Origin: Octopus vulgaris
Taxonomy: Eukaryota
DNA length: 64,000 nucleotides
NCBI GenBank assembly: GCA_951406725.2
Contig: OX597815.1
Span: 71,858,001-71,922,000, forward strand
Direction: 5' to 3'
A program made the position numbers and the translations under genes. The notes under the pieces are model-generated. The model did not search any database and was not told where the DNA came from. It saw only the letters and a program-made list of their open reading frames with translations. The first letter of the stretch is position 1. Each line of letters begins with the position of its first letter. Shown one piece after another: positions 1 through 62,873 of this stretch.

Positions 1-1278
1 CAGGAGAAAAGAATGGTATGACAAGAGGACCATTGTTTACAGGGTGTGCGCAAACGAAAGGAAGAGGGTAGAAGTTGTATCCATGGAATGGATAGAGGAA
101 GCCCTGCGAAGAACTGAGGAGGAAATAAATTTTCTGACTCGAGGATCCAAGTACGGGACCGTAGTTGTGCACTTTAAAAGTGAATCTGCAGCGAGGAAGA
201 TGGCAGCGAAGGCGGTGAAGTCGGAAAAGGTAACACTGTTACCTACGTATTTAAACAGGAGGATTACACGAATAAGGGTGGAGGGAGTGCCACCAAACGT
301 GGAGGCAGAATGGATTGTGGCGGCTGTGATCAGCGGCCACGAGGACGAAGTGGATATTCTCCATGCCTCGGTTAAGTCCGAGGGCTGGAGAGGCGTAACA
401 GTGGAGCTGAACGTACAGGCAGAGACCGAGGTACTGGTGGACCTGACGGAAAGCATCAGACTGGGAGAAGTGATCATGAGAGTGTGGGTGGAGGGCAGGG
501 CTCCACGTTGTTACAAGTGTGGCCTGAGGGGTCACATAAGAGCCTTCTGCCCTCCCCCAGGGAAAGAAATGGATCCCGAACCAGAGAGAGAGAAGCAGAA
601 ACCAGAGGAGAAGGAAACAGAGGAAGAGAATACACAGAAATGGAAGGAAGCTGGAAGTAAGAGGAAGAGAAGAATATGTGGAAAAAAAGAAAATAATATG
701 GAACTCCAATCTACCCCAAAACCTCCCACACCCTCTGAGTCCCACCCTATCCATGCAGACATTGAACCCACCCGCTCCCCCCAACAAGAAAACAAAAGAA
801 AAAAAGAATACACACACACAAGAGATTGAAATCGAACCCAGGCCGTACATTTGGACTATGACTGAACAGAGGGAAGTTAAAAGTCTAATGGAAGAGTATA
901 AACGGTATGATGTTGGAGAGACTAGGTATGCTGTGATTGAAAAAAAGAACATAGGTGAGTTTATGGGGAGGTGTGAAAGGGAGAATTGGGAGGTGAAAGA
1001 TATAAGAATGAGCGATGAATTCGTGGAAAGTATGAATGAGTGTTTCGGAGTAAGAGTGGATATGGAATTTATTCGTATTGGCAAAGAACATTCAAGTGAC
1101 TATGAAAAACAAAGGACAGGTAAGTGATGCTGACGGACGGGGCCGTTGGTATCGCTTTCATTTTATCATTTTTTCGTTTAACACTTCATGTTCATATAGT
1201 TTAATTATAATGTTCTATGTCCCCATGTTTTGTTATGTCCGCCATTCTTCGTAGCCCCTTAGTGGGTAATAAAGAAAT
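1..1278 (+). mobile_element. ORF1-only non-autonomous Tx1-related retroelement, copy 1 (5' end outside window)
   Basis: ORF1 homologue followed directly by a ~150-bp 3'UTR ending GCCCCTTAGTGGGTAATAAAGAAAT; no ORF2; colinear with copy 2. Confidence 0.8.
2..1127 (+). pseudogene. Tx1-type ORF1 (Gag-like zinc-knuckle protein), one frameshift near 749
   Basis: Frame open from base 2 (RRKEWYDKRTIVYRV...); knuckle CYKCGLRGHIRAFC; removing one A near 749 fuses ORF 44-829 to ORF 678-1127, matching copy 2. Confidence 0.8.
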
Positions 1279-2953
1279 ACGCGTTTTTTTGCGCTCAGTA
1301 AAATTCGGTTAAAAAAGAAAAAAGAACAAAAAGTGAATTGTGGTTGCGGAATTGGAACGTCGGTTGGTGCGGTTTCGCGTCGCACTGGTTCTGTGCGTCG
1401 CACGTTTTCTGTTCGGGAGGCCGTTTTTCGGTCTGAGGCGACTATGAGCCGCCTCTACCAAACGGATGAGATGGAAGGGAGAAATTTCTCTGAAAATTCG
1501 TCGACATCTGAGAAGGAGTTGGCGGTGAAAAAAATGGAAAGCACCTACGCAGGTATAACGAAGAAGTCAACAGAAAAAGAGATAGACCTGGCTAAGTTGA
1601 CGGACTTCCAGGAGTTCATGAAGGAGGAGGAGAACGGAGAGGTTGAGCTGTTGCCTCTAGCAGGGCGCGGAGACTGGTTCTATCGTAGAACCATTAAATA
1701 TAAAGTATTTATGAATGGAGGTAGAAAAATGGAAGTGATTAACATGGAAGCAATTGAAGAGGCTTTCAAACAGACAGGAGAAGAAATTGTGTACATGACA
1801 AAAGGATTAGAATATGGAACCATAACGGTACAATTTAAAAGGGAGAAAGCAGCCAGGAATATAGCAGCCAAGGTGGTGAGTACAGAAAAGTTTTACTTGT
1901 TCCCTTCGTATTTGAATAGAAGGACCACCAGAATTAGGGTGGAAGGAATACCTCCACACCTAGAGGGCGAATTAATAACGGCTGCGGTTATCAAAGGAAA
2001 TGAAGATAAAGTGGACATCCTCCACGCCATTATGAAATATGAAGGCGTGAGAGGTGCCACACTAGTAATGAACATACAGACGGAGGCGGAAGTTATAGAA
2101 AAGCTTACGGACAGTATAAAAACTGGAAATATTATTATGAGAGTGTGGGTGGAGGGTAGGGCGCCCAGGTGCTACAAGTGTGGCCTGAGGGGTCACATAA
2201 GAGCCTACTGCCCTCCCCCACCAAAGGAAAAAGAAAAGGAAATCGTCGCGGAAGCCCCAAAAGAGGAAGAAACCAAAGAGAATCAAAGGGAAAAAGAAAC
2301 GACAGAAGAAGAGGAGATGCAACAAGAGTGGGAAGAAGGAAGAAAAAAGAGAAAAAGAAAGAAAAAGAAAAACTGTGCGAAGCCCCAACCCACCCCAACA
2401 CCACCCGCACCCTCTGAATCCCACCCTTCCCCACAGACAGTGAACCCACCCGCTCCCCTCCAACAAGAAAACAAAAGAAAAATAATAATACAGACAGACA
2501 AGAGTTTGAAAACGAACCCAGGCCGAACATTTATATTGTGACTGAACAGAAAGAGGTTGAAAGGGTAATGGAGGAGTATGAATGGTATGAAATGGATGGG
2601 ACCAGATATGCAGTGCTGGAAAAGAAGAATATAGATGAGTTTGTGTTGAGGTGTGAAAGGGAGAATTGGGAGGTGAAAGATACAAGAATGAGCGATGAAT
2701 TCGTGGAATATATGGAGGACAGTTTCGGAGTAAGAATGGATATGGATGGTCTTCGTATTGGGAATGAACATTCAGGTGACAGTGAAAACAAAAGGACAGG
2801 TAAGTGATGCTGGCGGAGGGGGCCGTTAGCATCGCTTTCATATTATCATTTTTTCATTTTCATTTGCTCATGAATTTAATCATATTGTTCTATGTCCCCC
2901 ATGTTTTGTTATGTCCGCCATTCTTCGTAGCCCCTGGTGGGTAATAAAGAAAT
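1279..2953 (+). mobile_element. ORF1-only non-autonomous Tx1-related retroelement, copy 2 (apparently full length, ~1.67 kb)
   Basis: CpG-rich leader 1279-1443, ORF1, then 3'UTR ending GCCCCTGGTGGGTAATAAAGAAAT; no EN or RT. Confidence 0.8.
1444..2807 (+). CDS. Tx1-type ORF1 zinc-knuckle protein (1444-2541) plus ~100-aa C-terminal domain in the -1 frame (to 2807)
   Basis: First ATG 1444; STYAGI motif, RRTIKYK...GTITVQF...PSYLNRR...IPP region, CYKCGLRGHIRAYC knuckle; downstream domain conserved with copy 1. Confidence 0.8.
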
Positions 2954-3184
2954 AACATGGAGGAAATCAATTTATTGCGTTATTAGTAAGTTGATATATA
3001 TTTTTGCTCTCATACTACTTATCTCTGTTATTATATACTGTTGGTCTACCTTTTTTTGTCCATTGTTGTCTAACGGACGAAGTCAACCTTCGCGCGAAGA
3101 CTTCGCGTTGGTGTTCCCCCCTCAGTGGGGGAAAACTACAATCAATTTAGATTACCAAAGGCTTGTTAAAGCCATTTGTTCAAG

Positions 3185-4557
3185 ATGGAGTCCCCCATCA
3201 CTTATTCGCCCGTGACGAGCGAGGATGAATACCCGGCGTTGTCGCCAAGTAAAAAAGAGGCGTTGTCGCCAAGAAAAAAAGAGGCGCTGTCGCCGAAGAA
3301 AAAGAGGCGGCGTCGCCCAAGAAAATGGTAAAACCAGTACCAGCATCAACTCCAGCAAAAAAATTCGCTGAAGTGGCTGGGAAGAAAATTTAAAAAATTA
3401 ACGTGGACAACCTGGGAAAACATGCGGACTGTGTGTCAAAAGAGGGCACGGAAGTAACCGTGGCTTCAAACGCCAAAATACAGGAGGATATTTCGAATAG
3501 GAGAATAATCTATAAGACATTCAGTATAACAAACAGAGCAATCCAAAAAATAGAGGAGAAAAAGATTGAAAACTGCTTAAAGCCAATAATGGATAAAATT
3601 ACGTATATCAATCGAGGGAAGAAATACGGCACAGTGGAGGTGAGATTCACGTCAGAGGAGGTAGCGAAGAAGCTATCCATGGAACCCATAAAAGCGGAGG
3701 ATATTGTTCTCCTACCCCTGTATAAAGGCAAGAGAACTTCCAAGATCTCAATGAACAACATCCCGCCAGAAGCGGATGCCGAAGTCCTAGTGGCAGCAGT
3801 TATGGTAGGCCTGGAGGAAAAAATAAACATCCTCCAGGCCACCGTAGAAGAAGAAGAATTCTGGAAAGGGCAAAAGATAATAATAGCCATACAAGCAGAA
3901 GTACAAACCCTGGAAGAGATCCCAGAGACTCTAAGGATAAGCGAAGATGAAAGAGTCACAGTCTTCGTAGAGGGCAGAAAGCCGAGGTGCTTCGGCTGCG
4001 GTAAGAAGGGGCATGTAAGGGCGGAATGCCAGCCCCAACCCAAACCGCAGGAAGCACCTAAGCCAAAAGAAAAAGAAGACAATGTGTCACCAGAAGCAGC
4101 GTCAGACGGCCCAGAAGGGAAGACTGAAGGTGTGGAGGTGATGGTAACAGCAGAACTAGCGGCGGAGAAAAAAAAGAGCGAGGAAAAGATAAATGAGGAG
4201 GGGTGGGCAAAAATTATCGGAAAAAAAAAAAGAAAAACGGAAACCACCCCTCCCAGAGTAATTTTAAAAAAGAAAAAAGAGTCAATGAACTCATATATGG
4301 CCGTAAAAGCATCAAATAGCAGACTCGGAAACGTGTTGGCAGCCATGGCCAATGTGAAGAGAGTAGAGAAAAAAAATGACTTTGTAATTTACAAAATAGA
4401 CCGGAAGGATTACGGGCGGATAAAGTCAGATTTCTTCCATGACGTAGGCCCACTTAGGTTGGATGTAACATCTCCACATATATTCGAGGGCCTACGTCAG
4501 ACTCCCCACGAGGCCCAGAAAAAGAGAAGGAAGAAGAAGAAAAAACCGAACCACTGA
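3185..4557 (+). pseudogene. Tx1 ORF1p; likely start ATG 3185, frameshift ~3300, in-frame TAA at 3391
   Basis: MESPITYSP...(EALSPxKK)n...KKFAEVAGKK leading into ORF 3403-4557 with knuckle CFGCGKKGHVRAEC. Confidence 0.82.
3233..3326 (+). repeat. 24-bp tandem repeat x4 encoding EALSPxKK
   Basis: Units of GAGGCGTTGTCGCCAAGAAAAAAA. Confidence 0.85.
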
Positions 4558-4571
4558 TATAAAGGTAAGTA

Positions 4572-7500
4572 ATGGATTACATTTATGTTGGTTGTTTAAA
4601 TGTGCGCGGCCTGGGAGCAGGCTGGAAGCAAGGTCGCTTCCTGCATGATATCAGGTCGCGTAATTTAGATGTTATTGTTGCTACAGAAACCCGGCTAGAG
4701 GGGCCAAGAGGTCTACTCCCGCTGTTTGACGGCTACGAGAGTTTTTTCTCTCCTGGCAGTCCTACAGGCGGGAGTGGGGTGTTGGTCCTATTAAAAAGAA
4801 ACCGGGTTTCTGAGAAAAAGTTAATTTTTGCAGATCCAGAAGGTAGGCTGGTCGTCATGGATTTGACGTTCAGTAATGGTAAAGTTATCAGACTGGTTGC
4901 AATTTACGCACCCAACCATACAGGGCAAAGTGATTATTTTCGTGAACTAGAAAACTTTCTTGGTACTTCGCATTCATTAGTGGTGCTAGGAGACTTTAAC
5001 ACAATTTGCAAAGCGGATGTAGATTATGTTGGCTCGTGTCCAGATAGAAAAGGCAACAGTGGCTTCATGGAACTGCTAAGCCGCTTTGAGCTAGCAGATC
5101 CTTATAGGCTGGAATTTCCGAACGCTCCATTGTGGACATGGTCAAACAGCGACGGATCTTCCAGGTCGTATCTAGATAGAATACTAATTAGAAAAGTAGA
5201 CAGTAAAATAGCTAAGTGTCCACAGTTTTACCCGATCAGCTACAGTGATCATAAAATGGTCACTTGTAAGCTTGACATAGATAAGGTTAAAAATAGAGGA
5301 TCCGGTTACTGGAAACTTAATACGTCCCTTTTGGCGATTAAGGAGTACAAAGACCGGATTAGGAATATAATTCAGAGGGCACTATCTGGTACCATCATTA
5401 ATAACAAATGGTGGTACGCCCTCAAACGAGCCATCAAGTTTGAGTCTATTAGATATAGCATAGGAGTAGTGGCTAGAGAGGCTAGAAGGGAAACTACTCT
5501 AGTTAAGGAATTAGAGGAAGCCATGAAAACTGGCTCTGCGGCTCAGGTGGCGGCCAAGAGACTGGTGTTAAACCAGCACCTCGAGGCCAAACACATGGGC
5601 TGCATTGTCAGGGCTAGAATCCGTCATATGGGATGTGAAGGAATCAACGCCGTGAGATGGGCCCGAGTGGTGGAAGCTCAGCATGGTAACGATGCCACGA
5701 TTCGATCTTTGACGAACCAACAAGGTGAGTTGATAAACGAACCCGAGGAGATGTGTGAGGCCTTTCAGGAGCACTTCGCTCAGCTTTTCGGTGAGTGCGG
5801 CGGACTGGATAGGAGGAGGGCCTTTACGGACCTACTCGACGGTCTGCCGCGCTTATCGGGGCGAGATGCGGAGGGCTGTGAAGGGCCAATCACGCCTGAG
5901 GAGGTGGTTGAGGCAATGGCGGACTGCGGCGCGGGCAAGGCGCCGGGTTTGGATGGTCTACCCTATGAGTTATATAAGAGTATGCCAGACTTGTTCGGGC
6001 ACCTACTGGCGGAGGTCTACGCGAACTGGCAGCAGAACGGGCTTATACCCAGATCTGTGCGCCGGGGAGTAGTGACTCTCGTCAGAAAGGACCCGAGCAA
6101 GGGGGAGTGCATTGATAATTTCAGGCCCATCACTCTGCTAAACACAGAGTTGAAGATTTTGGCCAAAGTGTTATCGAAAAGATTGGCGCGTGTCGCGGAT
6201 GGTCTGATCGGAGGGGCACAGACATGTGCCGTTCCGGGCAGATCCATTCAGGATAATCTCCATCTAATGCGGTACACTATAGAGGGGTTTAATAGTGATT
6301 CTGGCAAGGGTGGGGCACTGGTCCATTTAGACCAATCTAAAGCTTTTGATAGGGTCGACCATCGTTACCTGGTATCTGCCCTGGCACAGTTCGGGCTGAG
6401 CCTTGGATTCCTCAGGTGGATTATCGAAATTTATGATAACATCGACTCGGTAGTTCGGGTGAACGGCTTCTTGTCGAAGCCGTTCAAAATCAAACGCTCG
6501 GTTCGTCAAGGGTGTCCGCTCTCCCCGCTTTTGTACGTGATGGCTCTTGAGCCATTACTGCGAAAACTGAGCGGCATCCCGAGACAGCCAGGTAATGGAA
6601 AATCAGTGTCAGCGTACGCGGATGACATCACCATCATCGTAACCGAAATGGACCACCTATGTAAAGTAGGCAAGGCCATAGAGGTGTACGAGACGGTGAC
6701 AGGAGCAAAAGTTAATCGCGAAAAGTCAGTCGGCTTGCAACTCGGCACCTGGAGAGGCAAGTCGATGCCGCCTGACAGCGTCGTGGGACGTTGGACGGAG
6801 GGTCCGATTAAACTGCTAGGGGTCTGGTTCGGTCCAGACCTCCAAATAGAGAAGAATTGGGGCGAGGTAACGAGCAAGGTGGCTGCAGTAGCCAAGACCT
6901 GGTCTTGGCGGTGGCTATCCCTGAAAGGGAGGGCGGAGGTGGCCAATGTGTTTATCGCATCGGTTATCACCTACCGCCTTTCCGTCGTTCCTTGCCCTGA
7001 TTCGTGGTTGATCAAGTTGGAAAGACAGCTCTTCTACTTCTTGTGGAAGGGCGGGAAACCACTTGTGAAACGCTCTACTTGCTGTCAACAACCGTTAAAG
7101 GGTGGGCTAGGGATGCCTTGGCTGATGATGCGCAGACATGCGCTGAGGTTAAGACATCTGTGGCTCTACCTGGATGGTGAACGGGTGTGGTCTTCGCTAG
7201 CAAAACTGATGTTTCCCAAGTTCACTAGTTTCGGTGGATGGGAAACCTGGCTGAATCGTAGATCGAAACTTGGTACTTGGTACACGGAGTGTCGCAAGGC
7301 TCTCCTGCTATTCCGTCGCTCGGGCAACGCCTGCGGTGGGGGTTCCACCACTTTCTTCTATAGAGGGTTGGTAGAGGCGGAATGTGAAGATACCTTGGGG
7401 AAACCCTAGGTCTCGACGATAACCAGCTGGCCAGTCTGTTCCGACGTACGTTCGAGCCAAGGACACTGGACAACTTCCAGAAGTCTCTGGCATGGCAATG

Positions 7501-7966
7501 CTACAGAGGAGCTCTACCTGTTCGGGATAAACTCGCAAGGCACGGTGGCCAAGACAGTCCGATATGTCCAAGATGCGGGCGGGATAGGGAAACTGTCCCG
7601 CACGCGATTGTTCATTGTCCGGACGTGTCTGAGGTGTGGGTTTATGCCGAACACCTGTTGTCAGGTACACGAAGAGTACAGCTGTCGACTGAGTCGATTA
7701 CAAAAATTGACCCACCGGATTTCCTCGTGAATGAAGGTAAGTTTCGTTTTCTCGTTGTAGTAGCAATCGCGAAAGAGGTGATATGGAAGACGAGAATGAA
7801 AGGTTTACAGTCAGGCAAGTTCATCTCCGGCCCTGGTTTGATGAATTATTTCATCTTTCACCTGAAAAGGAAGATAGGGCTGGAGAGAATATGCCTGACT
7901 AGGAGAGCGTATGAAGAACGATGGAAGGATGTAGCACGGAAGTTGCGAATGAAAGTTACAACATAA
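4572..7966 (+). CDS. Tx1 ORF2p: AP endonuclease, reverse transcriptase, C-terminal zinc finger; single frameshift at the G-run ~7397-7400
   Basis: LNVRGL, ATETR, IYAPN, GDFN, LDRIL, SDH; KAPGLDGL, FRPITLLN, DQSKAFDRV, RQGCPLSP, YADD; after the shift CPRCGRDRETVPHAIVHC runs in frame into ORF 7625-7966. Confidence 0.95.
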
Positions 7967-8211
7967 ATGTAATACCAAGTGCAACCAAAAGTATCAGTGG
8001 GGAGGCGGGGCTCGTGGGGTCCGAGCTAAACCCGCACCCACTCCACCCGTAATGTCTTCCGGTCTGTCCTATCACTCGATTTCTGTCCATTTATTGTTAT
8101 TCATGAAAATTTTTAAACCCGATTTATTGTAAAAACCCATTCGTTTGTCTGACCCCATCATCAGAATGTATTGTCCCATCTGTGTTCGCCCCTTGTGGGT
8201 AATAATAAAAC

Positions 8212-8520
8212 AACATGGAGGAAAGCACCTTCGAAAAGTGTCTTGGTGCAACTATGAAAGGTATCTAAACAGAGGCGGTAAATTCGCCACAATAGAAGCA
8301 AGGTTCGAGTCAACGGAGCGTGCAAGGGAGTACTCGACTCGAACTTGCAAAGTGGAAATATTTTATTTTTACCTTTATATCTGGGACGTAGGACGTCCCG
8401 TAAAAAAATTTAAAGCCCCCCCCCCCCCCCGAAGTAGAGGTAGGCTGGATTGTAGCCACACTTCTATACAAGAGGGAGGACAAGATACAATTGATCGAAA
8501 TTACAAAAGACAGGCTAACA
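8212..8520 (+). pseudogene. Degraded fragment of an older Tx1-family ORF1 (the insertion target)
   Basis: With frameshifts reads NMEESTFEKCL...YLNRGGKFATIEARF...LPLYLGRRTSR...PPEVEVGWIVATLL, aligning to YINRGKKYGTVEVRF...LPLYKGKRTSK...PPEADAEVLVAAV. Confidence 0.78.
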
Positions 8521-9445
8521 ATTCCTGTCTGTTATATATTTTGAGTATTGTTATCACTAACGATATCAAGATATAACTTTGTATTTTGTATTTTATGTGT
8601 AGATGTATATATATATATATAAATGTACATGTAATATGTACACATATATATACACATATATGCATGCACTAGCACTATGACCCAGCAACGACGGGTCTTT
8701 AATATCCAATAAAATAATATAAGCATTTAAAAAACCTATGAAAGACAATAAAATTATTTGAAAAAATATATCTAACTTACCTATTATTAGTCTGTGGGGA
8801 AAGAAGATACTTTTAATCAAGGCTACACGTGTTTCTGCGGTGGTGGGGTGTTTATCAAGGCTATACCTAATACATAAATCCACCAGTGCGTCCTCGAGCT
8901 TTTTATATTGACTTTATATTATTGTTTCTGACTAAAAACGGGGTTTAAAATGTATATAAGATACGATAGATGGCAGCTAGTAAAATGTTAAATAAGAATA
9001 TTGTTTTTTTTTATATATTACCCCTTATATGGTATTTTAAGATGTGCATATGCATACTTTTTTTTACCAGTAAATAAGGGAGAATCAAGGGCAATGTTTA
9101 CTTAGTTATACAGGGTGGGAGTGATGAGTATCTAATCATACGAACGAAAGGAACTGAATACTAACAAAGTTACGCTTGTAAGCTTCAGTTCTGAATTTGA
9201 ATTGACGAATGAAGGAATAAAATATAAATTAGTTAGAAAACGAAATTAATAGAAAATGATCACAAAGAAAAAACTAAAGGTACTAATTTTAGATACTTAT
9301 TATTCACTGATGATCTCCAAATGACATAATATAATAATGTGTATTACTTTTGTGGAAATACCTATTCTTCAATTGTATACCCGAAATATGGTCTTTTGCG
9401 ACAGAAAAAGCTGTCTGGTTAAATTAAATAACTAATCCATATTAG

Positions 9446-9890
9446 TGTAGCGTGGCAGTTTCAGCCATTTTGAAATATGACTATAGCGATTTCTAATATC
9501 TTCACTATTTGAAAGGCAAGGCAGAAATGATCTCGTTTGAGGTTACAGCCATCTTTGGCCAACTTGTTCCTGTTGTAAACACTAACCTGATTGGTTGACA
9601 CGTGACGCGATTTGTCTCCACTTATTTTCGCGCCACTGTCCCGAAACAACCAATCACGACCTTTGGTTAAGATTCCATTTCTGAGGCCCGTTTGAGCCAC
9701 CCAACCGGTATATAAAGGAGTATTTTCAGACACTTTTTGTCTTTGGTTCCAGTTCTTCTAAGAACTAAGTTTAGACCACAGCGCTACTCAACCAAACGAT
9801 ATACGATTGTTTCTGTTACCACTAGCTACGACGCTAATGTACAGTCACCACAGAAAGCCTTCTATCTCCGCCGCCGTCGTCACCATCATT
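9446..9890 (+). repeat. 5' LTR (first ~445 bp only)
   Basis: Direct repeat of 12765-13210; TATA-like TATATAAA at 9709. Confidence 0.93.
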
Positions 9891-10629
9891 GTACCAACAT
9901 ATGGCGTTTCTTTTCAAACTAGGGCTCCTCGACCTCCAGCGCCATCTTGAATTTTTTTGTTGATCGGAGCGACTGTTTCTCTCAAGTTGCAAACTCTCTA
10001 TTTTCTTCGTTAATACGTCGAATTGTTTTTCGTAACATTTTTTTAACTCTTGTGTTTCACTCGAAATAGATGGAATCGCACTAATAGTTTCTTTGGACGA
10101 TAACTCCAAAATACCGTCTGCTAAATCTGCCAACTGTTGAATTGAATTCTGTTTTTTTACGGCCGAGAGCAAAGTTTGGGTTTTATACGGCAGCTTATTG
10201 AAAAATACCTCTTTGAGGTACGATTCCTCTATTTGCTGGTTCCCCAGAAGTTCGTTCATCCTTCGTAGAAGTTGTGTGGGTTTTTTACTACCCAGTTCTT
10301 CGTTGTTAAATAATTTTGCGAATTCTTTTTGCTTAGAACTTGACGTACGCTTCAATATTTCTTCTTTAATAGATGAATACGAAACTGGTTCCATAGGGTT
10401 CAGCATTAAATCCCTGACTTCATTGCTTAGAGGTGGAGGCAAATTACTAAGCATGATGTTGTACTTCTGTTCTTCATTTGTTATTCTGTTAGCTTTAAAG
10501 CTTGCCTCTAGTTGTGCCAACCAAATTACGGTGTCTCCAGTCCACGGAGGACAATTCAATACATTGACAGAAGCTTGTGTGTAACTTCTGTCGATGTATG
10601 ATGCCTCGAATTCTGTTTTTCTGCTCCAT
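9890..10629 (-). pseudogene. gag: Gypsy gag, inverted relative to the LTRs
   Basis: CPPWTGDTVIWLAQLEASF...ELGSKKPTQLLRRM...ICWY; ATG 10629 with an early frameshift. Confidence 0.85.
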
Positions 10630-10776
10630 TATATTTGTGAATATATATATATTTTTTTTTTTGTTTTTTCGTTTTTCTTAAAAGGTTTCTTCTTCAGCGT
10701 TCTCTTGTGTCAATAATTCCGTAACTTATGCTTATTACTGTCTGCGTAGTATATACGAATGGCTGCGTATTTGAAA

Positions 10777-10827
10777 ACGTTCGGGTCACCAGTGTAAGCA
10801 ATATGAACGCACGTGGTCGCTTGTGTA
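10777..10827 (-). promoter_or_regulatory. Inverted LTR 3' end (10793-10827) and tRNA-Trp-type primer-binding site (10777-10791)
   Basis: Minus strand ...GTTCATATTGCTTACA C TGGTGACCCGAACGT; matches the 3' LTR end and the tRNA-Trp PBS TGGTGACCCCGACGT. Confidence 0.85.
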
Positions 10828-11418
10828 ACGATGTGATGTTCTACCGAATGCGCACACGTAATATTTAGAGCTAACTGTTTTGTGATTTTTGGATAATTTT
10901 TCAAAATCTTGTGGTATCTATTTCCTGAAGACGCTATGAAATATAGTGGACTAATTGTTGCCTTTCTGCATCTCATTCCCTGAATTTTTAATGACGTTTG
11001 TGTGTCTATTAATTTTTGTTTGTTAACATCTACCATTAAATGATAGTGCGCCAAAAAATCCGCTCCTAATATTGGATATGGCAAATCCGCTACTATGAAG
11101 ATCCATTTGTAGTCTCTTCGTAAATTTATATTGAGCGTTAAGCTAATCTCTCCAAATGTTTGGATTTCAGACTATTCACTGCTTGAAGAGTCATATACAC
11201 AGGTTTGGTTTTTTGTTTTAAAAGCCTTACAGGCCATATTGAACACGCTGTTCCTGTATCCACGAGAAATCTTTCTTTCGAGTTTAAGTCATAGACGAAA
11301 AACACGCGACTTTTTATAATATTATCCACAGATTTCGTCGCATCCAATCTATGGTTTAGAAGTTTTCCGAATTTCCCTTTTTTCTTAGCTAGGAAATCAA
11401 ACGCACAGGGTTTAATGC
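10828..11418 (-). pseudogene. gag C-terminus, aspartic protease and pre-RT linker, inverted
   Basis: CIKPCAF...GNSENF*, FLVDTGTACS, PILGADFL, VEHHIVT. Confidence 0.87.
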
Positions 11419-11419
11419 G

Positions 11420-12508
11420 AATAAGGATATTCGTTCATGGGTAAAGTCATGTATGCAATGTCAGAAATCCAAAGTACAACGTCATATCAAAGAACCATTA
11501 GGTACATTTGCAAATCCGGATGCGAGATTCCAACATATCCACATCGATATAGTGGGACCCTTATCTCCATGCGAGGATAATATGTATTTGTTGACGTGTG
11601 TCGATTGTTTTTCGAGATGGCCCGAGGCTTATCCGATAAAAGATGTATCTGTAGTAACTATAGCAAAAACCTTGTTTACCAATTGGATGTCTAGATTTGG
11701 CATCCCAAATGCAGTGACAACAGATCGTGGTAGACAATTTGAGTCTAGCTTGTTCGCAGAATTCAATAAATTGTTGGGGATTAATAGAATTCGTACAACT
11801 TCATATCACCCACAATCTAACGGAATGGTAGAAAGATTCCATAGACAGTTGAAAGCTTCATTAAGAACTTATTCTTATTCTAACGATTGGCTGCAGGCTT
11901 TGCCAGTGGTATTGTTGGGAATTAGAAGTGCGGTTAAGGAAACTATACAGTATTCTCCGGCTGAACTATTGTACGGAACAACATTAACTCTACCTGCTCA
12001 AATGTTCGAGGAAACTAATATTTTCAATGGAGATGTTAATGATTATGTAACTCGTCTAAAAAGATTTCTTACGGATATTCCTTCTTGTACAAGAAAATTG
12101 CAAAATGTTACAAGCTTTCTTCCTTCGGATATAAAATCTTGGACACATGTGTATGTCCGTAACGATGCAGCTCATAATTCACTGAGATATAAATACACCG
12201 GACCTTTTAAAGTCTTATCAGTTACAGACAAAACTATGACTTTGGAAATGAATGGAAAGAAAGAAAATGTCAGTGTCGACAGAGTAAAAAAAGCTTATTT
12301 CGACCAATATCCATGTCATGAAAACGGTGATATGAGCAACACACATCAACATAACGTGAAAACAAGTGACAGTCAAGGAAACAAATCCGATGTTGATGGA
12401 AAAACAAAATCAATTCTAAAGTTACCTACAAATAAAAAAAAACTAGAAGTGGTAGAACTGTCCATTTCCCAAGAAAACTTTCTCAGTTTGTTTGAGAATT
12501 TTATATAA
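11420..12508 (+). CDS. Gypsy integrase (N-terminally truncated)
   Basis: CMQCQ, HIDIVGPL, TDRGRQF, SNGMVERFH, YTGPFKV. Confidence 0.92.
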   Translation, partial: NKDIRSWVKSCMQCQKSKVQRHIKEPLGTFANPDARFQHIHIDIVGPLSPCEDNMYLLTCVDCFSRWPEAYPIKDVSVVTIAKTLFTNWMSRFGIPNAVTTDRGRQFESSLFAEFNKLLGINRIRTTSYHPQSNGMVERFHRQLKASLRTYSYSNDWLQALPVVLLGIRSAVKETIQYSPAELLYGTTLTLPAQMFEETNIFNGDVNDYVTRLKRFLTDIPSCTRKLQNVTSFLPSDIKSWTHVYVRNDAAHNSLRYKYTGPFKVLSVTDKTMTLEMNGKKENVSVDRVKKAYFDQYPCHENGDMSNTHQHNVKTSDSQGNKSDVDGKTKSILKLPTNKKKLEVVELSISQENFLSLFENFI

Positions 12509-12764
12509 AAAAAAAGAAAATTTTTTTTTATGATTTTATTCATGGATTATATAAAAAGAAAAAAGAAAAAAAAAAACATTATTTTTTTTTCAGCGAAAGG
12601 AGAGGAACAATGTACGAACATGATAAACGTAAGCCGTATTGGAAAGACTAAGTTCATATGTTTTAAACTTGTAAATGCATTTGTAAAAAAAAAATAAAAG
12701 AAAATATATATGTATAACGAATTTCCTTCGCAAAATTGTAACAATTTTTCTGGCGAGAGGCTGA

Positions 12765-13612
12765 TGTAGCGTGGCAGTTTCAGCCATTTTGAAATATGAC
12801 TATAGCGATTTCTAATATCTTCACTATTTGAAAGGCAAGGCAGAAATGATCTCGTTTGAGGTTACAGCCATCTTTGGCCAACTTGTTCCTGTTGTAAACA
12901 CTAACCTGATTGGTTGACACGTGACGCGATTTGTCTCCACTTATTTTCGCGCCACTGTCCCGAAACAACCAATCACGACCTTTGGTTAAGATTCCATTTC
13001 TGAGGCCCGTTTGAGCCACCCAACCGGTATATAAAGGAGTATTTTCAGACACTTTTTGTCTTTGGTTCCAGTTCTTCTAAGAACTAAGTTTAGACCACAG
13101 CGCTACTCAACCAAGCGATATACGATTGTTCCTGCTACCACTAGCTACGACGCTAATGTACACTCACCACAGAAAGCCTACTATCTTCGCCGTCTCTTCC
13201 ATCATGTATCAACTTCAAGTCGTTTTCAACATCCTGATATTGAACTCTTACACTTCGTGTACCTCCTGAACAGTAAATCAATTTCCATCATTAACCCTAT
13301 GCTCTGTACTTTTCTATGCCACACGCATTCACCCTGATTGTATCTGTCACACACACGAACACACAGACACAAACACGTGTTGCATGCACACATGCACACA
13401 CGCACTTGCTAGCACTCACAACCTTCTAACCTTAACACCAATTGTAAATAAAATAAAATCTTCTCTCAAACAGTGGAACGGCCTTGTCGTCAATTCATCT
13501 ATATTCTGTCGTTACTGCATGTATTTATGGCTTGTAATAATTCGTTAAGAATATGACCACGTGCGATCGTATTCCCTACACAATGCGACCACGTGTGTTC
13601 ATATTCCTTACA
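12765..13612 (+). repeat. 3' LTR (848 bp)
   Basis: TGTAGCG...CCTTACA, preceded by purine-rich GGCGAGAGG; AATAAA ~13447; ~32-bp tandem duplication at its end. Confidence 0.92.
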
Positions 13613-30745: not shown

Positions 30746-31148
30746 AAGGCGGCGAGTTGGCAGAAACGTTAGCACGCCGGGCGAAATGCTTAGAGGTAGC
30801 AGTATTACGTCTGCCGTTACGTTCTGAGTTCAAATTCCGCCGTGGTCGACTTTGCCTTTCATCCTTTCGGGGTCGATAAATTAAGTACCAGTTACGCACT
30901 GGGGGTCGATGTAATGGGTTTAATCCGTTTGTCTGTCCTTGTTTGTCCCCTCTGTGTTTAGCCCCTTGTGGGTAGTAAAGAAATAGGTATTTCGTCTGTC
31001 TGCACGTTCTGAGTTCAAATTCCGCCGACTTTGCCTTTCATCCTTTCGGGGTTGATAAATAAAGTACCAGTTCTGTACTGGAGTCAATTTAATCGACTGG
31101 CCCCCTCCCCTAAAATTTCGAACCTTGTCTCTAGAGTAGAAAAAATAT
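30746..31148 (+). mobile_element. Dimeric SINE family B (head-core-Tx1-like tail, then partial head-core-tail A); also 58412-58998(-), 61576-61977(-), 35882-36290(-); monomers/fragments ~29465-29680, 31515-31650, 40185-40557, 42435-42580, 51410-51770, 55410-55535, 56260-56445
   Basis: B-box GAGTTCAAATTCC, core GTCGACTTTGCCTTTCATCCTTTCGGGGTCGATAAA; TSD AATATAGTGAATTA at 30731-30744 and 31144-31157. Confidence 0.88.
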
Positions 31149-35871: not shown

Positions 35872-36459
35872 CTAGCGATCTTATTTCTTTATTGCCCACA
35901 CGGGACTAAACATAGAGGGGACAAACAAAGACAGACAAAGGTATTAAGTCGATTACATCGACCTCAGTGCTTAACTGGTACTTACTTTATCGACTGAGAA
36001 AGGATGAGAGACAAAGTCGATTCGGCGGAATTTGAACTCAGAACGTAACCGTAGACGAAATACCTATTTCTTTACTGCCCACAAGGGGCTAAACACAGAG
36101 GGGGCAAACAAGGACAGACATACGGATTAAGTCGATTACATCGACCCCAGTGCGTAACTGGTACTTAATTTATCGACCCCGAAAGGATGGAAGGCTAAGT
36201 CGACCTCGGCGGAATTTGAACTCAGAACGTAACGGCAGACGAAATACTGCTACCGCTAAGCATTTCGCCCGGCGTGCTAACGTTTCTGCCAATCGAAAGC
36301 CACCATTATGTATATGACGGTAAATCTTACATTGGTGTGCATTTCCATAGTAACAAACAGCGCCGTAGTCTGACACTTTCACCTCTCTCATTCACTACCA
36401 CAAATGTTGGCGAGCAAAATCATTTTGTGTTCGTGTTATTTCTGCCTAGCGATCTTATT
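35872..36459 (-). mobile_element. SINE B dimer ending in the Tx1-like tail, with a ~155-bp captured 5' segment and 14-bp TSD
   Basis: TSD CTAGCGATCTTATT at 35872-35885 and 36446-36459; 36287-36444 is the reverse complement of 36819-36975. Confidence 0.85.
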
Positions 36460-46329: not shown

Positions 46330-48900
46330 TATTCATGTTTCTTCTATATCTTTGCCCTTTGGAATCTGATTCTGAAGGAATGTTTTTGTGAGCTAGCATA
46401 TGTCTTTTAAGTCCATATATTATCTTACAGGTTTTATGACATATGACACAAGCCGTAAGAGGTAGTTGATGTCCAAGATTATTTATTACCTGTCTGGGCA
46501 TTTCGATTTTCATGTGACTTCATATGATTCAGGTATCCTGCTTTTGACAACAGAACACGATCACATGTAATATCCAATATTCACTATTGATTACAGTTCC
46601 AATTGTTCCTTTGCCATAGGTCCTTATAAGCTCAGATTACGGAATCATATTTTCCTCCCAGGCATTGCAACTAGTCCTAACTGCACCTCTCCACTTGTTC
46701 CGATCGAGAATATCATTTTCCCAGTCACTTTTTGTTCATATCTAGTTTCTTCAGTTTTTCCTTCACCACAAGTCTTTATACCTTTTCCCGGCTTACAGTG
46801 TGGTCGCTTACCAGAGTTGAACTCACCATAAAAAAAGACGTTTTGGAAATCGCTCGTCTTTCATTCTAATAAAATGTCCAGTCCATCTCATTTGAGCCAA
46901 GATCACATGCTGTTCAATTGAGCTACAACATGCCATGCACAAAACTTCTGTATCTAGTATGAATCATTCCCACTTGACTCCTAAGATACGTCTGAGGCCC
47001 TTTTGATAAAATCTCTCCAGCATTTTTATATGACGCTTGTAAGTGGTCCGCGTCTCACCTGAATAGAAAAGTGCAGTCAATACTCACGCTTTATAGACAC
47101 TGATTTTGTCTGCAGGGAAATACCTCTATCAACCCATACTCGCTTTTCGAGCTTTCCAAATGCAACACTTGCCTTCCCTATTCGATAGTATATCTCTGCA
47201 TCAAAACTACCATCTCTTGACAGTGTGTTTCCTAGGTAAACAAAGGTGTCAACGACTCCTAACCTTGTTCCATTCACAAAAATGTTTGGTTCAGAATATG
47301 CTTGTTCTGTTACGGGAGTAAACATTACTTTGATTTTCCCCAGACTAATTGTGAGCCCTAAATGTACACATTCAGTGGAAAATCTTTTGCATAACCCCCT
47401 CTGAGTGTGCTAACAATTCAGCATCATCAGCATAAAATAATTCTCTAACAAGTATTTTGAAAGTCTTTGCATTGCAGTTAAACTGGATCAAATTAAAAAT
47501 ATGACCAGATGTCTGAAATCTGATTCCAGTTTCTCTGTAGCAATCCTTGAAAGTATACCAAAGCAATGCAGCAAAATAAATAGAGAAAAGTGTAGGGGTA
47601 GGAATATCTCCCTGTTTAACACCATTGTCCACCAAAAATTCATGAGATAGTTCACCATTAAAGACTACCTGAGCTTTCATGTTTCTGTGTAATTCCTTAA
47701 AGATGCTCACAAAATGTGTTGAGCAACCAAGTTTATGCAAAACAATCCACAATGCCTCCCTGTTTACCGTGTCAAATGCCTTAATTAAATCTATGAAGAC
47801 CTGGTATAGTGGCATTTGTTTCTCTAAGCATTTCTCCTGAACCTGCCTCACAGAAAATATCATGATCATTGTTCCTCGCTCAGGTCTGAAACCACACCGT
47901 TCTTCAGGAATCATATGCGGGCACACATTCTCAACGAGACGATCTAACATGGTCTTTGAAAGTATCTTCCCGGTATATGCAACGAGAGTTATCCCGTTAG
48001 AATTACCATACACTGCTTTTAGGCCCTTACCCTTGTATACAGAGATTAGAATGCCATTTATCCATTCCTGTGGCACAGAAGATTCATTCCAAACTCGAGT
48101 TATAAGGCTATGAATTTCAGATGAAATATGATCTCCACCTGCTTTCAGAATTTCAACTGGAATACGATCCAATCCAAGAGCTTTATCTGATCTCAGTTTA
48201 CATAATGCCGGATTTATTTCTTCAATGGAAAGGGTATCGTTCACGTGTTGCACTATCTCTCTTTGCAAGATGTTGTTTATGATATCCATGTCCACAACAG
48301 ACGGATTGTGGAAAAGTTCTGCAAAGTGTTCTCTCCATCTATTCATTATTCCAGGAGGCTCGTTAATAACTTCATTTCCATCTTTTGACTTCAAGGGAAC
48401 ATATGATGAAGATTGCCGTCCAAAAGCTTGCCACAATAAACTATAAAAACTTTTAGTGTCTTTCCTGTCATAAACTGCCTGTACTTCCTCAGACAAATTC
48501 CTCCACCAAGTGTCTTTAAGCCTCCTGAGTTCTTTTTACAAGTTTGCTTTCTGAGACGTGTACAACTTTTCTAGTTGCACTTTGTTCTTTACGTTTGGGT
48601 CAAGAATTTTTTTTAGTAGTGGCCCTCTTTGTTGCTAAAAGTCCATTTATCACTGTATCATTGGAATCAAACCAGTCTCAGTGCTATCTCCTCTTAAAAC
48701 CTAACATTTTTAGTGCACCTTTTCTAGCACCTTCCCAGTATATCCAGGTGAGCAGCGTTCTCCTTTAAAGGCTGCTCAGACACAAGATTCTCAACCGAAA
48801 ACAGTTCCTGTCCATAAAAACATGTTAGCGATGTTAAGATAAGAACCCTGTCGCCTTGCAGATTTGTAACTGAATGCGTCCAATCGGTCAAAGCTGCATA
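46330..48900 (-). mobile_element. RTE-clade LINE, 5'-truncated and degraded
   Basis: ORF 47372-48496: FIDLIKAFDTVNRE, GVKQG, LFYADDAEL; downstream YLGNTL...YRIGKASVAFGKL; terminal CVICHK...GLKRHMLAH. Confidence 0.9.
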
Positions 48901-56300: not shown

Positions 56301-59300
56301 CTTTACGTTCTGAGTTCAAATGCCATCGAAGTCGACTTTGCTTTTCATCCTTTCAGGGTCGATAAAATAAGTACCAGTTGAGCCCTGGAGTCGATGTAGA
56401 CTTACCCGCTTTCCCGAAATTACTGACCTTGTACCAAAATCTCAAACCATTTTTAATTGCTTTATCTACCGTTAAAGAGTAAATAAATAAAATGCCTATG
56501 CTCATCATATGTCACAACAGCGCCCCTACAATTCCATTAATTAGTTAATTTTTGGCTCAAAACGCAAAAGGACCCAGAAGTAGGCAAAGCAAGGCCACTC
56601 CATATTAAATCGTTTCACTTTCCCTTTTTCCTTTTTATACTCACTTGATTTTAGATTGATCCCGCAGACTAGGGGTCTGCAACGATAGCACTGAAAAAAA
56701 AAGGCAAGAAAATACCTCTTTTTTTTATTATTCACACTATTTTCAATCAAAATTTTTGACAGACATTTCAAGACTTAAGTTGATTTATTGTTGTTTTGTT
56801 GACCTTACAAAGAATTATCGGTCAGTTCAGTTTAAGTAGAATCTGCGGTGCTGGAACAGTCGATCAAAGACTCAATTGAATGAACGTTCAAACCGTGACT
56901 GTTCTCTCTTTGTTGCTCTTCCAAGATTTATGATTGTAAAACATGTGGTTGCCATTTTAAAAGATGGCGGACACTTAGATGAGAATACTTGGTTATGCTG
57001 CTATTGAGCAGCTCTAGTGACTATAGAGAAGTCTTTGTGGTGGTTAAAAATATAAATTAAGTTTGGCAGGGGACTAATACCAGTAATTATTGCATTTGGG
57101 GTCAAGTGTGGAACCTTAGAACCTTCTAGGCGGGAAATTTTCTCAGTTCATTGCATCCAAATAACTACAGCTGAAGAAAAATAGTTCGTGTTATCCATTT
57201 ATCAGAACCGTGTGTGTGTGTGTGTGTGTGTGTGTTCATACTGAAATTTCATACAGAACTTTTTAGTGAAATAATCACATTTTCTAAAAGGCTCTTTCAC
57301 CTTCATTCAATCCTCTCTCTGACTTCCTCTTTCTTTTTCTCTCCCAGCCTCTCTCTCCCCTTCTCTCTCCCTTCATCTCCCCCTCTCTCTCTTCATCTCC
57401 CCCTCTCTCTCTCTGTATCCTTTCAAACGTTACTACTTTGTACTCCAATCGCAATGACAAGAAGAGAAATATCTTTTATTCTGAAATTAAGATGGCGATG
57501 ACGGTACAGTTGCTATGCTGGATTCACAATGTTTTAAAACATTTTTTCTCAATATTCCGGACTCCCTCCCCCACCTTCCTGCTCCTCCTTTCCTCCTCTT
57601 CCTCCTCTTCCTCCTCTACCTCCTCCTCCTCCTCTTCCTCCTCCTCCTGCATCTCCTCCTCCTCACCTCCTCATTCTCTTCTTTCTTCATGAAGGAGCTG
57701 AAGAATGAAAGAGACAGAAGAAAAAAAAGAAAAGAAAGAAACAAAGATAGAAAGCAAGAATTCCGAACTGATGTAGTGAAAAACAAAAACAAAGAAATAA
57801 AAACAAATAGAAGACATTTGCGTTGTATGTTTGTCAAAACTAAGAGTGGAATGAAAACCTCTAACTTTATAACGTTCGTGTTTGGTAGACAAAAGGACAT
57901 TTTATGAGTTTCATTTTATTTTTCTCTCCCTTGATTTTCTCTTTCTTCCCTCTTCCCGTGATTCTATCACGCAAACCAACAAAAATTAACAAAAGACTAC
58001 AATAGAAATATTACTTGAACAGTTACGAAGCCATTAGACTCATAACAGAAATCATTGACACTCGTCTTCCTAAATAAATCGTTTGTTATCATCACCAACC
58101 GATCATATATTTATTATTGCCATTATTGAGACAGTGCTAGGTTAGAACCATAGACTGACTAAATCACAGCAGGAAGGAATGATTGGACAAATAGACTTGC
58201 GTGTTTATCTTTCATCTTTTATCTTTCATTTGTTGCAGTCAGTGGACTGTGGCCATATTGGGGCACCGATCTGATGGCTGCAGTCCAGTGCTTCTCAACA
58301 TTTTTAAACTATGGGCCCCTTTGGTTCCAATTTTAGTCCACAGGACCCCCACCCAACCCAGCAGCCATTCGTTGTTTAAAAAATTCCTATTATATTTTTA
58401 TAATTAAATATTCTTTTCTACTCGAGGCACAAGGCCCGAAATTTTGAGGGAGGGGCCGGTTGATTAGATCTACCCCAGTACGCAACTGGTATTTAATTTA
58501 TCGACCCCGAAACGATGAAAGACAAAGTCGACTTCGGCGGAATTTGAACTCAGAACGTAGCGGCAGACGAAATACATATTTCTTTACTACCCACAAGGGA
58601 CTAAACACAGAGAGGACAAACAAGGACAGACAAACGGATTAAGTCGATTATATCGACCCCAGTGAGTAAGGATGAAAGGCAAATTCGACCTCGGCGGAAT
58701 TTGAACTCAGAACGTAGGATACCGGACGAAATAACGCGAATCATTTCGCTCGGCGTGCTAACGTTTCTTATTTCTTTATTGTCCACAAGGGACTAAACAT
58801 AGAGGGGACAAACAAGGAGAGACAAAGGGATTAAGTCGATTACATTGATTCTAGTGAGTAACTGGTACTTATTTAATCGACCCCGAAAGAATGAAAGGCT
58901 AAGTAGACCTCGGCGGAATTTGAACTCAGAACGTAGCGGCAGACGAAATACCTCTAAGCATTTCGCTCGACGTGCTAACGTTTCTGCCAGCTCGCCGCTT
59001 TTATGATTAAATATTATTAGGAATTGCATTAAAAAACTAAAATATTTTGTGTTGTACAAGTATAACCAATTTAATGCAGATAAGTTTTAGCAACAAAATT
59101 TTACATGGACCTACAGGGGCCATGTGGACCCCGGTTGAGAATCACTGATGTAATCGAACAAATCGACCCCGGAACTTATCTCTTTCTTTTTTTTTAAGTT
59201 CGGTACTTACTCTCTTTCTCTTTTTCTCTCTTTTACTTGTTTCAGTCATTTGACTGCGGCCATGCTGGAGCACCGCCTTTAATCGAGCAACTCGACCCCG

Positions 59301-61145: not shown

Positions 61146-62873
61146 GAAAACGGTGGTTTACAAGGGATTTTCTCTAATTCGTAGCCTGTACATAGTTTTT
61201 TTGTATGTAGGGTCTTCCATACTTTTTTAATCTATATGGTCGTACATTGGCTTTAGAGAATACGTTTTAGTGATTTTCACATTTTTTAAATTTATTATTT
61301 ATTCATATGTTGTAATTGTGTATTATTTCTTGGTTAGAGAATATTATAAAAGTGAAAGTATTTTGTCTGTTTATTTCGACTGTCCACCTGTTATTATTTA
61401 TTTATATGTTGTAACTGTATATTATCACTTGGTTAGAGAATATTCTTTTCTACTCTAGGCACAATGCCCGAAATTTTGGGGGAGGGGGTCAGTCGATTAG
61501 ATCGACTCCAGTACGCAACAGGTGATTATTTATTTATATGTTGTAACTGTAAATTTTTACTTGGTTGGAGAATATTCTTTTCTACTCTAGGCACAAGGCC
61601 CGAAATTTCGGGGGAGGGGCCACTCGATTAGATAGACCCCAGTACGCAACTGGTACTTAATTGATCGACCCCGAAAGGATGAAAGGCAAAGTCGACCTCG
61701 GCGGGATTTTGACTCAGTAAATACAGACGAAATACCGCTAAGCATTTCGCCTGGTGTGCTAACGTTTCTTATTTCTTTATTGCCCACAAGGGGCTAAACC
61801 TAGAGGGGACAAACAAGGACAGAGACCCCAGTGCGTAACTGGTACTTAATTTATCGACCCCGAAATGATGAAGGGCAAAGTCGACCTTGGCGGAATTTGA
61901 ACTCAGAACGTAACGGCAGACGAAATACCGCTAAGCATTTCACCCGGTGTGCTAACGTTTCTGCCAACTCGCCGCCTTTGGTTAGAGAATATTATAAAAG
62001 TGAAAGGATTTTGTCTATTTATTTATTTCTACTGTTCACCTGCGACGATTATTAAATTGACTAGGAATACTGTACACGATGAATATCCAATGCCAAACAA
62101 TCTTAATCTCCTTATTTAAACTGCATTAAACTTTGGCAAGCTTACCTTTACTTATTCTGAGTTACTTGAAACGTGATGTTCCCCCCTATCTTCTATTTGT
62201 TGATACCTTTGTTTATCTACCAATACGTTGTTCCACTTTAAGGATGCTTATTTACCTATCCATTATGATATTTAGAACGCGATATCTTTTCTCTGCGAAC
62301 TACTAAAGATTCAACGCAGTATTCATAAAATGAAGTCAAACTCTTCATGTCTTCATTTTACGTTACCTGAAGTCAATATCAGAGTGGTCATACACTGTAA
62401 GCAAGTAGAAAATATATTCCTTTAACTTTATATAATACCTACGAGTAGGTATTATATTGCTATTTTTTAACGTACCAATCATACTTCTCTCTGAAAAAAT
62501 AGTTCCCTTTGCTATTGAATAAACTAAACTTGCAGCGGGGAAGTTTCTACGCTTTCCTTCAATTGCCTTACACCATTTATGAGGCTGTTTCTGACAAGAA
62601 ATTTTGCTTTCATTTTGTAGTCATTATCCATAAAATACTCCCAAAACACTTCAGTAGTTCTACTTTGCTTTGCTTGCAAACTTATATGTTCTATGATCAT
62701 TAAAGTGCAACGACCTCCACAATAACCAGCCATCAATTTGGTTTTCTGTTCCTAGGTTAATCTGAAACGTAGATTGCCGTACTACCCATAAACCTTCTCG
62801 GTAGTCCAATTATTTGGTGAAAAAAAATACCACCAAAGCAACTTAAACCGTCCAAAGAACGGATGCGTTTGCT

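Follow-up and report, generated by a model that had tools for sequence, protein, structure and literature searches.

ORF1-only elements and a Tx1-type LINE at one site of a Helitron-like repeat in Octopus vulgaris, and a SINE with a related 3' tail

In Octopus vulgaris, a long interspersed nuclear element (LINE) of the Tx1 type, here called T1, and elements that contain only open reading frame 1 (ORF1) are inserted head to tail at one site within a Helitron-like repeat. The end of such an array lies in the window studied here, a 64,000-nucleotide stretch of contig OX597815.1 (assembly GCA_951406725.2, positions 71,858,001 to 71,922,000, forward strand). It is reasonably probable that the ORF1-only elements are copied by the ORF2 protein (ORF2p) of T1, and that a short interspersed nuclear element (SINE) with a related 3' tail owes its earlier spread to a related LINE of lower site specificity. 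A previous sequence-only reading of the window had proposed a three-tier system, in which the ORF2p of T1 mobilises both the ORF1-only elements and the SINE through a shared tail. Two of these tiers are supported; the third, the SINE, is supported only at the level of the LINE clade.

One insertion site and its occupants

The target is a repeat of ~1 kb that starts with 5' TC, ends with 3' CTAG, contains a subterminal hairpin and lies between A and T (three of three empty copies, with the same ends in occupied loci). We take these features to be the ends of a non-autonomous Helitron. In 330 exact empty sites, GAAC is followed by ACATGG at the insertion point. A direct join of the left and right flanks was rejected as the empty site: it has 0 matches, and the real site is longer by 8-11 bases, which are often missing at the 5' junctions of A-, B- and C-type elements. 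Among B loci, 30/30 are followed by AACAT[GC]. Tails of the T1/D type have 123 exact matches genome-wide; an ACAT-like sequence comes after each of the first 30, and in 29 of these cases it is the Helitron site, original or regenerated. Two patterns that combine tail and site gave 93 and 24 matches (117 junctions). Of the 93, 24 have A/B-type ends, all 24 being ORF1-only elements, and 69 have a T1/D2-type end; 24 of these were individually identified as T1, and most of the others were assigned from the type of tail. The 24 junctions of the second pattern comprise 10 A, 8 D and 6 older T1. T1 is strictly site-specific and is the sole LINE found at the 3' junction of the site. The array loci are interstitial and lie on many contigs.

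The insertions of B are independent, because the host right arms have diverged by 6.6%, close to the 6.2% among empty copies, and B copies differ from one another by only 1.2%, although this value is biased low, the bait sets for B and for the SINE being the top matches to the window copies; this bias weighs against our reading. Amplification of B as Helitron cargo is ruled out by these divergences. Element RNA converting long stretches of the Helitron left arm, which another result had suggested, is not supported by pairwise alignment (3.7% for occupied versus 4.2% for empty copies).

The ORF1-only elements, as the sequence-only reading had recognized, are genuine non-autonomous families that have the tail and the exact insertion site of the LINE in common with it. 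In 40 larger loci, four ORF1-only types (A, B, C and D; about 1.7-1.9 kb) form head-to-tail arrays together with LINEs. Full-length ORFs are present in 20/61 A, 18/42 B, 3/9 C and 0/8 D units, and no match to ORF2 was found inside ORF1-only units. A genome search with B yielded 595 candidates (39 scored); the 41 best rows are 90-100% identical and are distributed over many contigs. The B protein, 454 aa in open copies, is 25-28% identical to LINE ORF1s, with invariant residues in common, and its only database relatives are three partial matches, labelled Octopus vulgaris. The B model (mean predicted local distance difference test score 59, core about 70-88) resembles proteins with tandem RNA recognition motifs (RRMs; Foldseek E 2e-5; VIA Z up to 9.5, root-mean-square deviation 2.4, 81 aligned), and the RRMs are followed by a single CCHC knuckle that scores below the Pfam cut-off. 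The ORF1 protein (ORF1p) of A-D is predicted to consist of a double RRM plus a zinc knuckle.

This protein is under purifying selection, with a ratio of nonsynonymous to synonymous substitution rates (dN/dS) of 0.11-0.12 in the RRM-knuckle core (A versus B; older versus younger B). Between A and B the C-terminal part has a dN/dS of 0.8-1.0 and a low dS, a pattern that suggests a swap of 3' halves. A programmed frameshift in the A and B ORF1s was rejected, since the breaks differ among copies and open copies are common. Because the A-D ORF1s form long branches apart from all sampled LINE ORF1s, in a quick tree in which long branches meet, they look like old lineages without a sampled parent LINE. 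Beyond the last 60 nt, the similarity of their 3' untranslated regions (UTRs) to those of LINEs is near the shuffle level, with B the highest (46 versus 28 +/- 3). Poly(A) is absent at B junctions, and lengthened A runs are found in some C copies only.

T1 ORF2 matches PF03372 (E 1e-13), PF00078 (E 1e-30) and PF13966 (E 1e-9), and is open, at 1129-1131 aa, in 3/22 copies. A tree of reverse transcriptase (RT) domains, built without curated Tx1/L1 references, defines a genome-wide clade only, and one 26%-identical match is named 'Transposon TX1'; T1 and the ORF1-only set apparently belong to the Tx1 clade. T1 3' ends have a median pairwise divergence of 4% (51 ends). Older T1 copies (L311, L317-L319, L328, L331) end directly before CACATGG, and younger tails (window 8200-8216) have an extra CA before ACATGG; the T1 tail appears to have taken up bases of the target, a hint of read-through RNA. 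A sister family (L378, L379, L391), at 86-93% to T1 in the ORF2 C-terminus, is flanked 3' by sequence from a different position in this Helitron-like repeat, a second site some 300 bp inside the right arm.

In about 32/40 LINE loci (L176-L215, by eye), GTAAGT or GTAGG is present at the end of ORF1, before the ORF2 ATG. The families concerned are 53-97% identical in ORF2, and the motif could serve an ORF1-only spliced mRNA or U1 binding. GTAAGT is also present in A (1120-1125) and B (2800-2805); with the donor still in place, A and B are unlikely to be simple splice products of a LINE. Stop-start coupling at the T1 ORF1/ORF2 junction is not general, since open T1-type ORF1s stop before GTAAGT.

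A clade-wide 3' tail and the SINE that carries it

All the tails that the sequence-only reading had quoted are present in the window at the positions given. The motif has 9 window sites, versus 1 match in total over 30 dinucleotide shuffles, the match between upstream blocks is genuine (14/16 nt, then an 11-nt gap), and the window tails are not followed by poly(A). The tail is also found on many sister Tx1-type families, some of which are closer to the SINE than T1 is. A zf-RVT search gave 25,804 candidates, of which 150 were scored and about 130 LINE 3' ends inspected; in most of these ends a pyrimidine block is combined with a hairpin and an AATAAA-like terminus. A Watson-Crick stem, 3 bp or longer, directly precedes the AATAA motif in 21/21 LINE ends (shuffle mean 5.5, maximum 12), a set of related rather than independent rows, picked to span families with a locatable end and with a few truncated ends left out. 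The stems differ (CCC/GGG, ACC/GGT, GCC/GGC, GATT/AATC, AATC/GATT and CCT/AGG), and the GCCC/GGGT form is found mainly in a subclade (support 99) of T1, a second LINE, T2, and several sisters. In this genome, the shared tail is thus the mark of an entire Tx1-type LINE clade and does not single out one family.

Other members of the clade have other targets. An older LINE family (L131-L150; 4,101 candidates) has a related tail that is nearly always followed by (ATT)n or (ATC)n microsatellites, flanks that resemble targeting of the Kibi/Koshi type. Sister families (L107, L114, L117, L179, L188-L196) have their own recurrent target repeats and are also arrayed. Because some of these arrays include further ORF1-like units, the passenger system may extend to other targets. 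A separate repeat (L284:2000-2434, L025:650-870) has a related tail end next to (TCTA)n or (TC)n and is possibly a further non-autonomous family of the clade.

The SINE unit is about 230 bp long, and its tail motif has 61,754 exact matches genome-wide. tRNA-like A and B boxes can be seen by eye; there was no Rfam match to tRNA and no other relevant Rfam match. The SINE may resemble the MetaSINE superfamily (66-bp Meta domain), and it has probably been catalogued already. In 1.5 Mb of fetched DNA, 78 SINE tails were found, 30 of them internal to multimers. The 48 terminal tails are followed by A (47/48), then K-R-T-A-T; G[AGT]TA[CT] follows 17/48, versus a background of 1.8%, and ACATG follows 0/48. 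The K-R-T-A-T motif is also present in the SINE's own head, which likely explains the multimers. None of the 117 tail-site junctions belongs to a SINE, despite at least 61,754 SINE tails. The sequence-only reading had named a difference among the classes in target-site duplication (TSD) or nick signature as one result that would refute it. The junction signatures do differ: ACATG, within the Helitron, comes directly after T1, A, B and D, and K-R-T-A-T after the SINE. Mobilization of the SINE by T1 ORF2p is thus not supported.

By its tail, the SINE belongs to the LINE clade of T1, and the hairpin is structurally conserved, as had been proposed; the tail is not exclusive to T1, however. It aligns with the T1 tail over both blocks and the hairpin (score 63, versus about 15 when shuffled) and scores higher with other families (L215, 75; L192, 68; L213, 66). 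Its upstream block is matched best by the L213/L215 LINEs, its last ~35 nt match old LINE copies, and the ends of L382 and L395 are nearly the same as that of one SINE variant. Two results weigh against the spread of the SINE by a related LINE: none of about 130 LINE ends, from the 25,804 candidates, has the complete SINE tail (7/7 matches were SINEs), and the SINE motif was not seen in the 3' flanks of L382-type copies. Pairwise divergence is 10% for the SINE (median of 36 incidental copies), 5.9% for the Helitron arm, 4% for T1 and about 2% for A and B. Thus the SINE looks older than the Helitron target family, although there may be a young minority of copies. A related LINE, rather than T1 currently, likely spread the SINE earlier, because the target motif differs, the SINE is absent from the site junctions and its age is greater. 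Since most SINE copies seem to predate the target family, the driver may also have been an ancestor of T1.

The TSDs reported at first need some revision. A 13-bp pair does flank T1 (2954-2966, 8212-8224) and a 14-bp pair the minus-strand SINE dimer. At T1 and D loci, however, the upstream copy occurs in recurring variants and the downstream copy is near-constant, so that the upstream 13 bp of T1 are probably carried in part by the element and are not a pure TSD. The upstream copy of the 14-bp pair sits about 150 bp before the SINE head, separated from it by non-SINE sequence (36295-36445, minus strand) that is possibly a 5' extension carried with the dimer. Clear SINE TSDs, of 13-20 bp, are present in 10/20 monomer loci. 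The agreement in TSD length is not diagnostic, because sister LINE families give duplicates of about 15-26 bp.

Array growth, alternative explanations and window features

We infer that the arrays grow by sequential insertion at a self-renewing site, from RNAs with short flanks of the donor locus. The T1 endonuclease would nick the Helitron just before ACATGG. ORF2p would then bind the conserved pyrimidine block and the 3-6-bp hairpin before AATAAA, and reverse transcription would be primed at this 3' signal without poly(A). A-D, which have no ORF2, have kept a working ORF1p; a function like that proposed for HeT-A and HAL1 is probable, in which it packages the RNA of its own element and co-assembles with LINE proteins. 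With ACATGG left directly 3' of every insertion, the site would survive and later copies could stack singly. Transcripts that carry short donor-locus flanks, as is likely, would explain the Helitron stubs and the tail of the previous unit at 5' junctions. The source of the SINE tail would be an older LINE within this hairpin subclade, one that weakly preferred K-R-T-A-T, and the SINE would have expanded mostly before the Helitron family did.

T1 is favoured as the mobilizer because no other LINE was found at the 3' junction of the site; T2 is its main rival. If T2 moved A, B and C, these would have reached the site through their own ORF1p or through RNA flanks homologous to the target, and only D would use T1. 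Several observations point this way and count against T1: A1, B and C tails are closer to T2 than to T1 (scores 67-73 versus 40-50), and only D tails match T1 and its close sister L199; T2 is young; its loose target starts include ACTTG, ATAGA and ATATA, similar to ACATG; and one T2 copy, with an A/C-type 5' stub, lies inside a Helitron array. However, the copies of T2 are scattered and have duplicates of about 17-20 bp, only 1/17 of its loci lies in a Helitron array, and it accounts for 0/72 of the individually classified site junctions. In addition, the B junction is identical to that of T1, and the accessible portion of PMC4494074 attributes target choice by elements without long terminal repeats (non-LTR) mainly to the endonuclease. 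We consider this role for T2 unlikely. It is a little less likely still that T1 ORF2p, or that of its immediate ancestor before T1 narrowed to the Helitron, moved all three tiers through the shared tail. The alignment of the SINE and T1 tails is what such a system would produce, and under the ancestral version a SINE burst older than the Helitron family would be expected to be missing from the site. Nevertheless, T1 is strictly site-specific, the SINE is missing from the site junctions in spite of its abundance, its post-tail motif differs, and it fits L215, L192, L213 and L382-type termini better.

Least probable, and in our view improbable, is the origin of whole arrays in single events, either by template jumping of the RT between RNA ends or by whole-array copying (read-through RNA or Helitron cargo). 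Units are joined without TSDs, often with a few extra bases, and A and B are similar in age. The unit order is stereotyped, (C/A)n-B-(D)n-T1, the same unusual junctions are found on more than one chromosome, and there is a weak correlation between the divergence of B and that of the host right arm (r=0.36, p=0.057); these three points run counter to sequential insertion. Because such junctions recur, some multi-unit copying of arrays may have occurred. On the other hand, the A and T1 neighbours differ between B copies that are almost identical, the divergence of the host arms is five times that of B, and at many junctions the previous tail is followed by the initial one or two bases of the target (C or CA), as sequential insertion predicts. 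B is not correlated with the body of the preceding A (r=0.06, p=0.33) and is correlated with its last 200 nt (r=0.36, p=0.004; 15 loci), and some junctions contain 20-70-nt stubs of the Helitron left arm. An age gradient along the arrays was looked for and not seen, A upstream of B being as young as B.

Positions of the elements in the window are given in Table 1. The array continues upstream of the window, a continuation that, like the Helitron right arm at 8212-8715, the sequence-only reading had not recognized: the 5' ~300 bp of the first A copy lie there, preceded by four more A copies and a Helitron left arm. Two further elements are distinct from the array. An LTR element at 9446-13213 has 453-bp repeats that are 97% identical; its gag-like and protease-like frames are minus-strand and its integrase-like frame plus-strand, which suggests internal rearrangement. 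LINE RT fragments distinct from T1, with a 387-aa open frame, lie at 47077-48535 on the minus strand; we take them to be RTE-like.

Table 1. Elements of the array and SINE copies in the 64,000-nucleotide window
Feature	Position	Strand	Remarks
Family A ORF1-only element	1..1278	+	frameshifted near 800-830 in window copy
3' tail of A	1240..1278	+	pyrimidine block, hairpin, AATAAA-like end
Family B ORF1-only element	1279..2953	+	ORF from 1444, frameshifted near 2430 in window copy
3' tail of B	2915..2953	+	
Upstream target-sequence copy, TSD-like	2954..2966	+	probably partly element-borne 5' leader
T1, Tx1-type LINE	2967..8211	+	ORF1 about 3186-4557 (broken in window copy), ORF2 4572-7966
Splice-donor-like GTAAGT	4565..4570	+	between ORF1 end and ORF2 ATG of T1
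T1 ORF2: endonuclease, RT, zf-RVT	4572-7966	+	frameshift near 7390-7409; 245-bp 3' UTR
3' tail of T1	8171..8211	+	
Right arm of ~1-kb non-autonomous Helitron-like target repeat	8212..8715	+	subterminal hairpin near 8680-8698
SINE monomer	30748..30984	+	tRNA-like A/B boxes (by eye), shared tail 30943-30984; truncated second unit next
SINE dimer, two tails	35883..36295	-	14-bp duplicate at about 35872 and 36446-36459
SINE multimer, two tails	58578..59017	-	tails at about 58578 and 58770
SINE unit	61771..61995	-	tail about 61771

Significance and comparison with known systems

This system bears on why ORF1-only derivatives of LINEs retain ORF1p. Two young LINE families with opposite targeting, strict in T1 and loose in T2, at least four long-lived ORF1-only lineages and a SINE, all with one tail, allow tail, ORF1p and endonuclease to be swapped separately. 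A likely stringent tail is added to the L1/Tx1 group, in which tail-sharing SINEs are rare (three in the accessible portion of PMC3747384), and a SINE whose tail has over 60,000 copies is linked to a LINE clade. A one-base-specific LINE that carries 1.7-kb passengers in trans would be of interest for targeted insertion. It is possible, though rather doubtful, that the clade-wide 3' signal serves the RT but not the choice of partner, that ORF1p or RNA flanks homologous to the target admit passengers to T1, which would be why they have kept ORF1p, and that the Helitron acts as a self-renewing landing pad. If so, ORF1p would be a partner-selection key that SINEs do not have, and the landing pad would be an interstitial analogue of the HeT-A/TART telomere array.

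HAL1 proper derives from L1 and ends in poly(A), and HeT-A proper forms arrays at chromosome ends; A-D end in the hairpin tail and their loci are interstitial. T1 and the SINE have in common, at the level of the clade, the 3' sequence and stem-loop of a stringent LINE/SINE pair; their insertion signatures differ, and concurrent activity is not seen. What follows concerns the accessible portions of the papers cited. A 2026 repeat annotation of O. vulgaris lists 13 recently active L1-Tx1 families, and the words 'target', 'nested' and 'non-autonomous' do not occur in those portions of it (PMC13282606). In the literature searched, with subscription papers, Repbase and Dfam outside its scope, no prior description of this system was found.

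Among pairs linked by tails, the nearest parallel is the monocot L1 lineage with ZmSINE2/3, in a survey that includes only 3 SINEs with L1-clade tails and in which no Tx1 LINE/SINE pair was seen (PMC3747384). There, too, LINE and SINE have a common 3' tail with a stem-loop, the stem of which varies with compensatory changes; in octopus, by contrast, the tail is common to many LINE families with different targets. Tx1 LINEs that insert into DNA transposons are also known: Xenopus Tx1 in Tx1D, and crocodilian Tx1-Mar and SINEU in Mariner-N4_AMi (PMC4494074). These systems resemble T1 in their multicopy DNA transposon target, tandem insertions and Tx1-linked SINE. However, the octopus target is Helitron-like and the passengers encode protein; and SINEU is linked through its target and 5' heads, whereas the octopus SINE is linked through its tail and does not share the target.

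Non-autonomous LINEs that retain ORF1 have been described in the Jockey (HeT-A), L1 (HAL1) and CR1 (Ag-Sponge) clades (PMC5786205; for HAL1 also PMC5753468), and 'Tx1' has 0 occurrences in the portions of PMC5786205 consulted. Like A-D, HAL1 and Ag-Sponge are LINE derivatives with ORF1p only that have amplified as families of their own. Unlike them, A-D are apparently derived from Tx1, strictly site-specific and arrayed, have a hairpin tail without poly(A), and include at least four deep lineages that coexist in the octopus set. HeT-A likewise has ORF1 only and is arrayed head to tail together with an autonomous partner (TART/TAHRE), and its transcription begins within the 3' end of the preceding unit, a parallel to the leader stubs and the tail correlation in octopus (PMC1636488). 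HeT-A differs in its Jockey clade, its location at chromosome ends, its long 3' UTR and its host function (PMC1636488); the octopus site is internal, at a fixed base in a dispersed Helitron-like repeat. The octopus elements are a HAL1/HeT-A-like set of passengers, apparently of the Tx1 clade, for which a Helitron serves as the landing pad.

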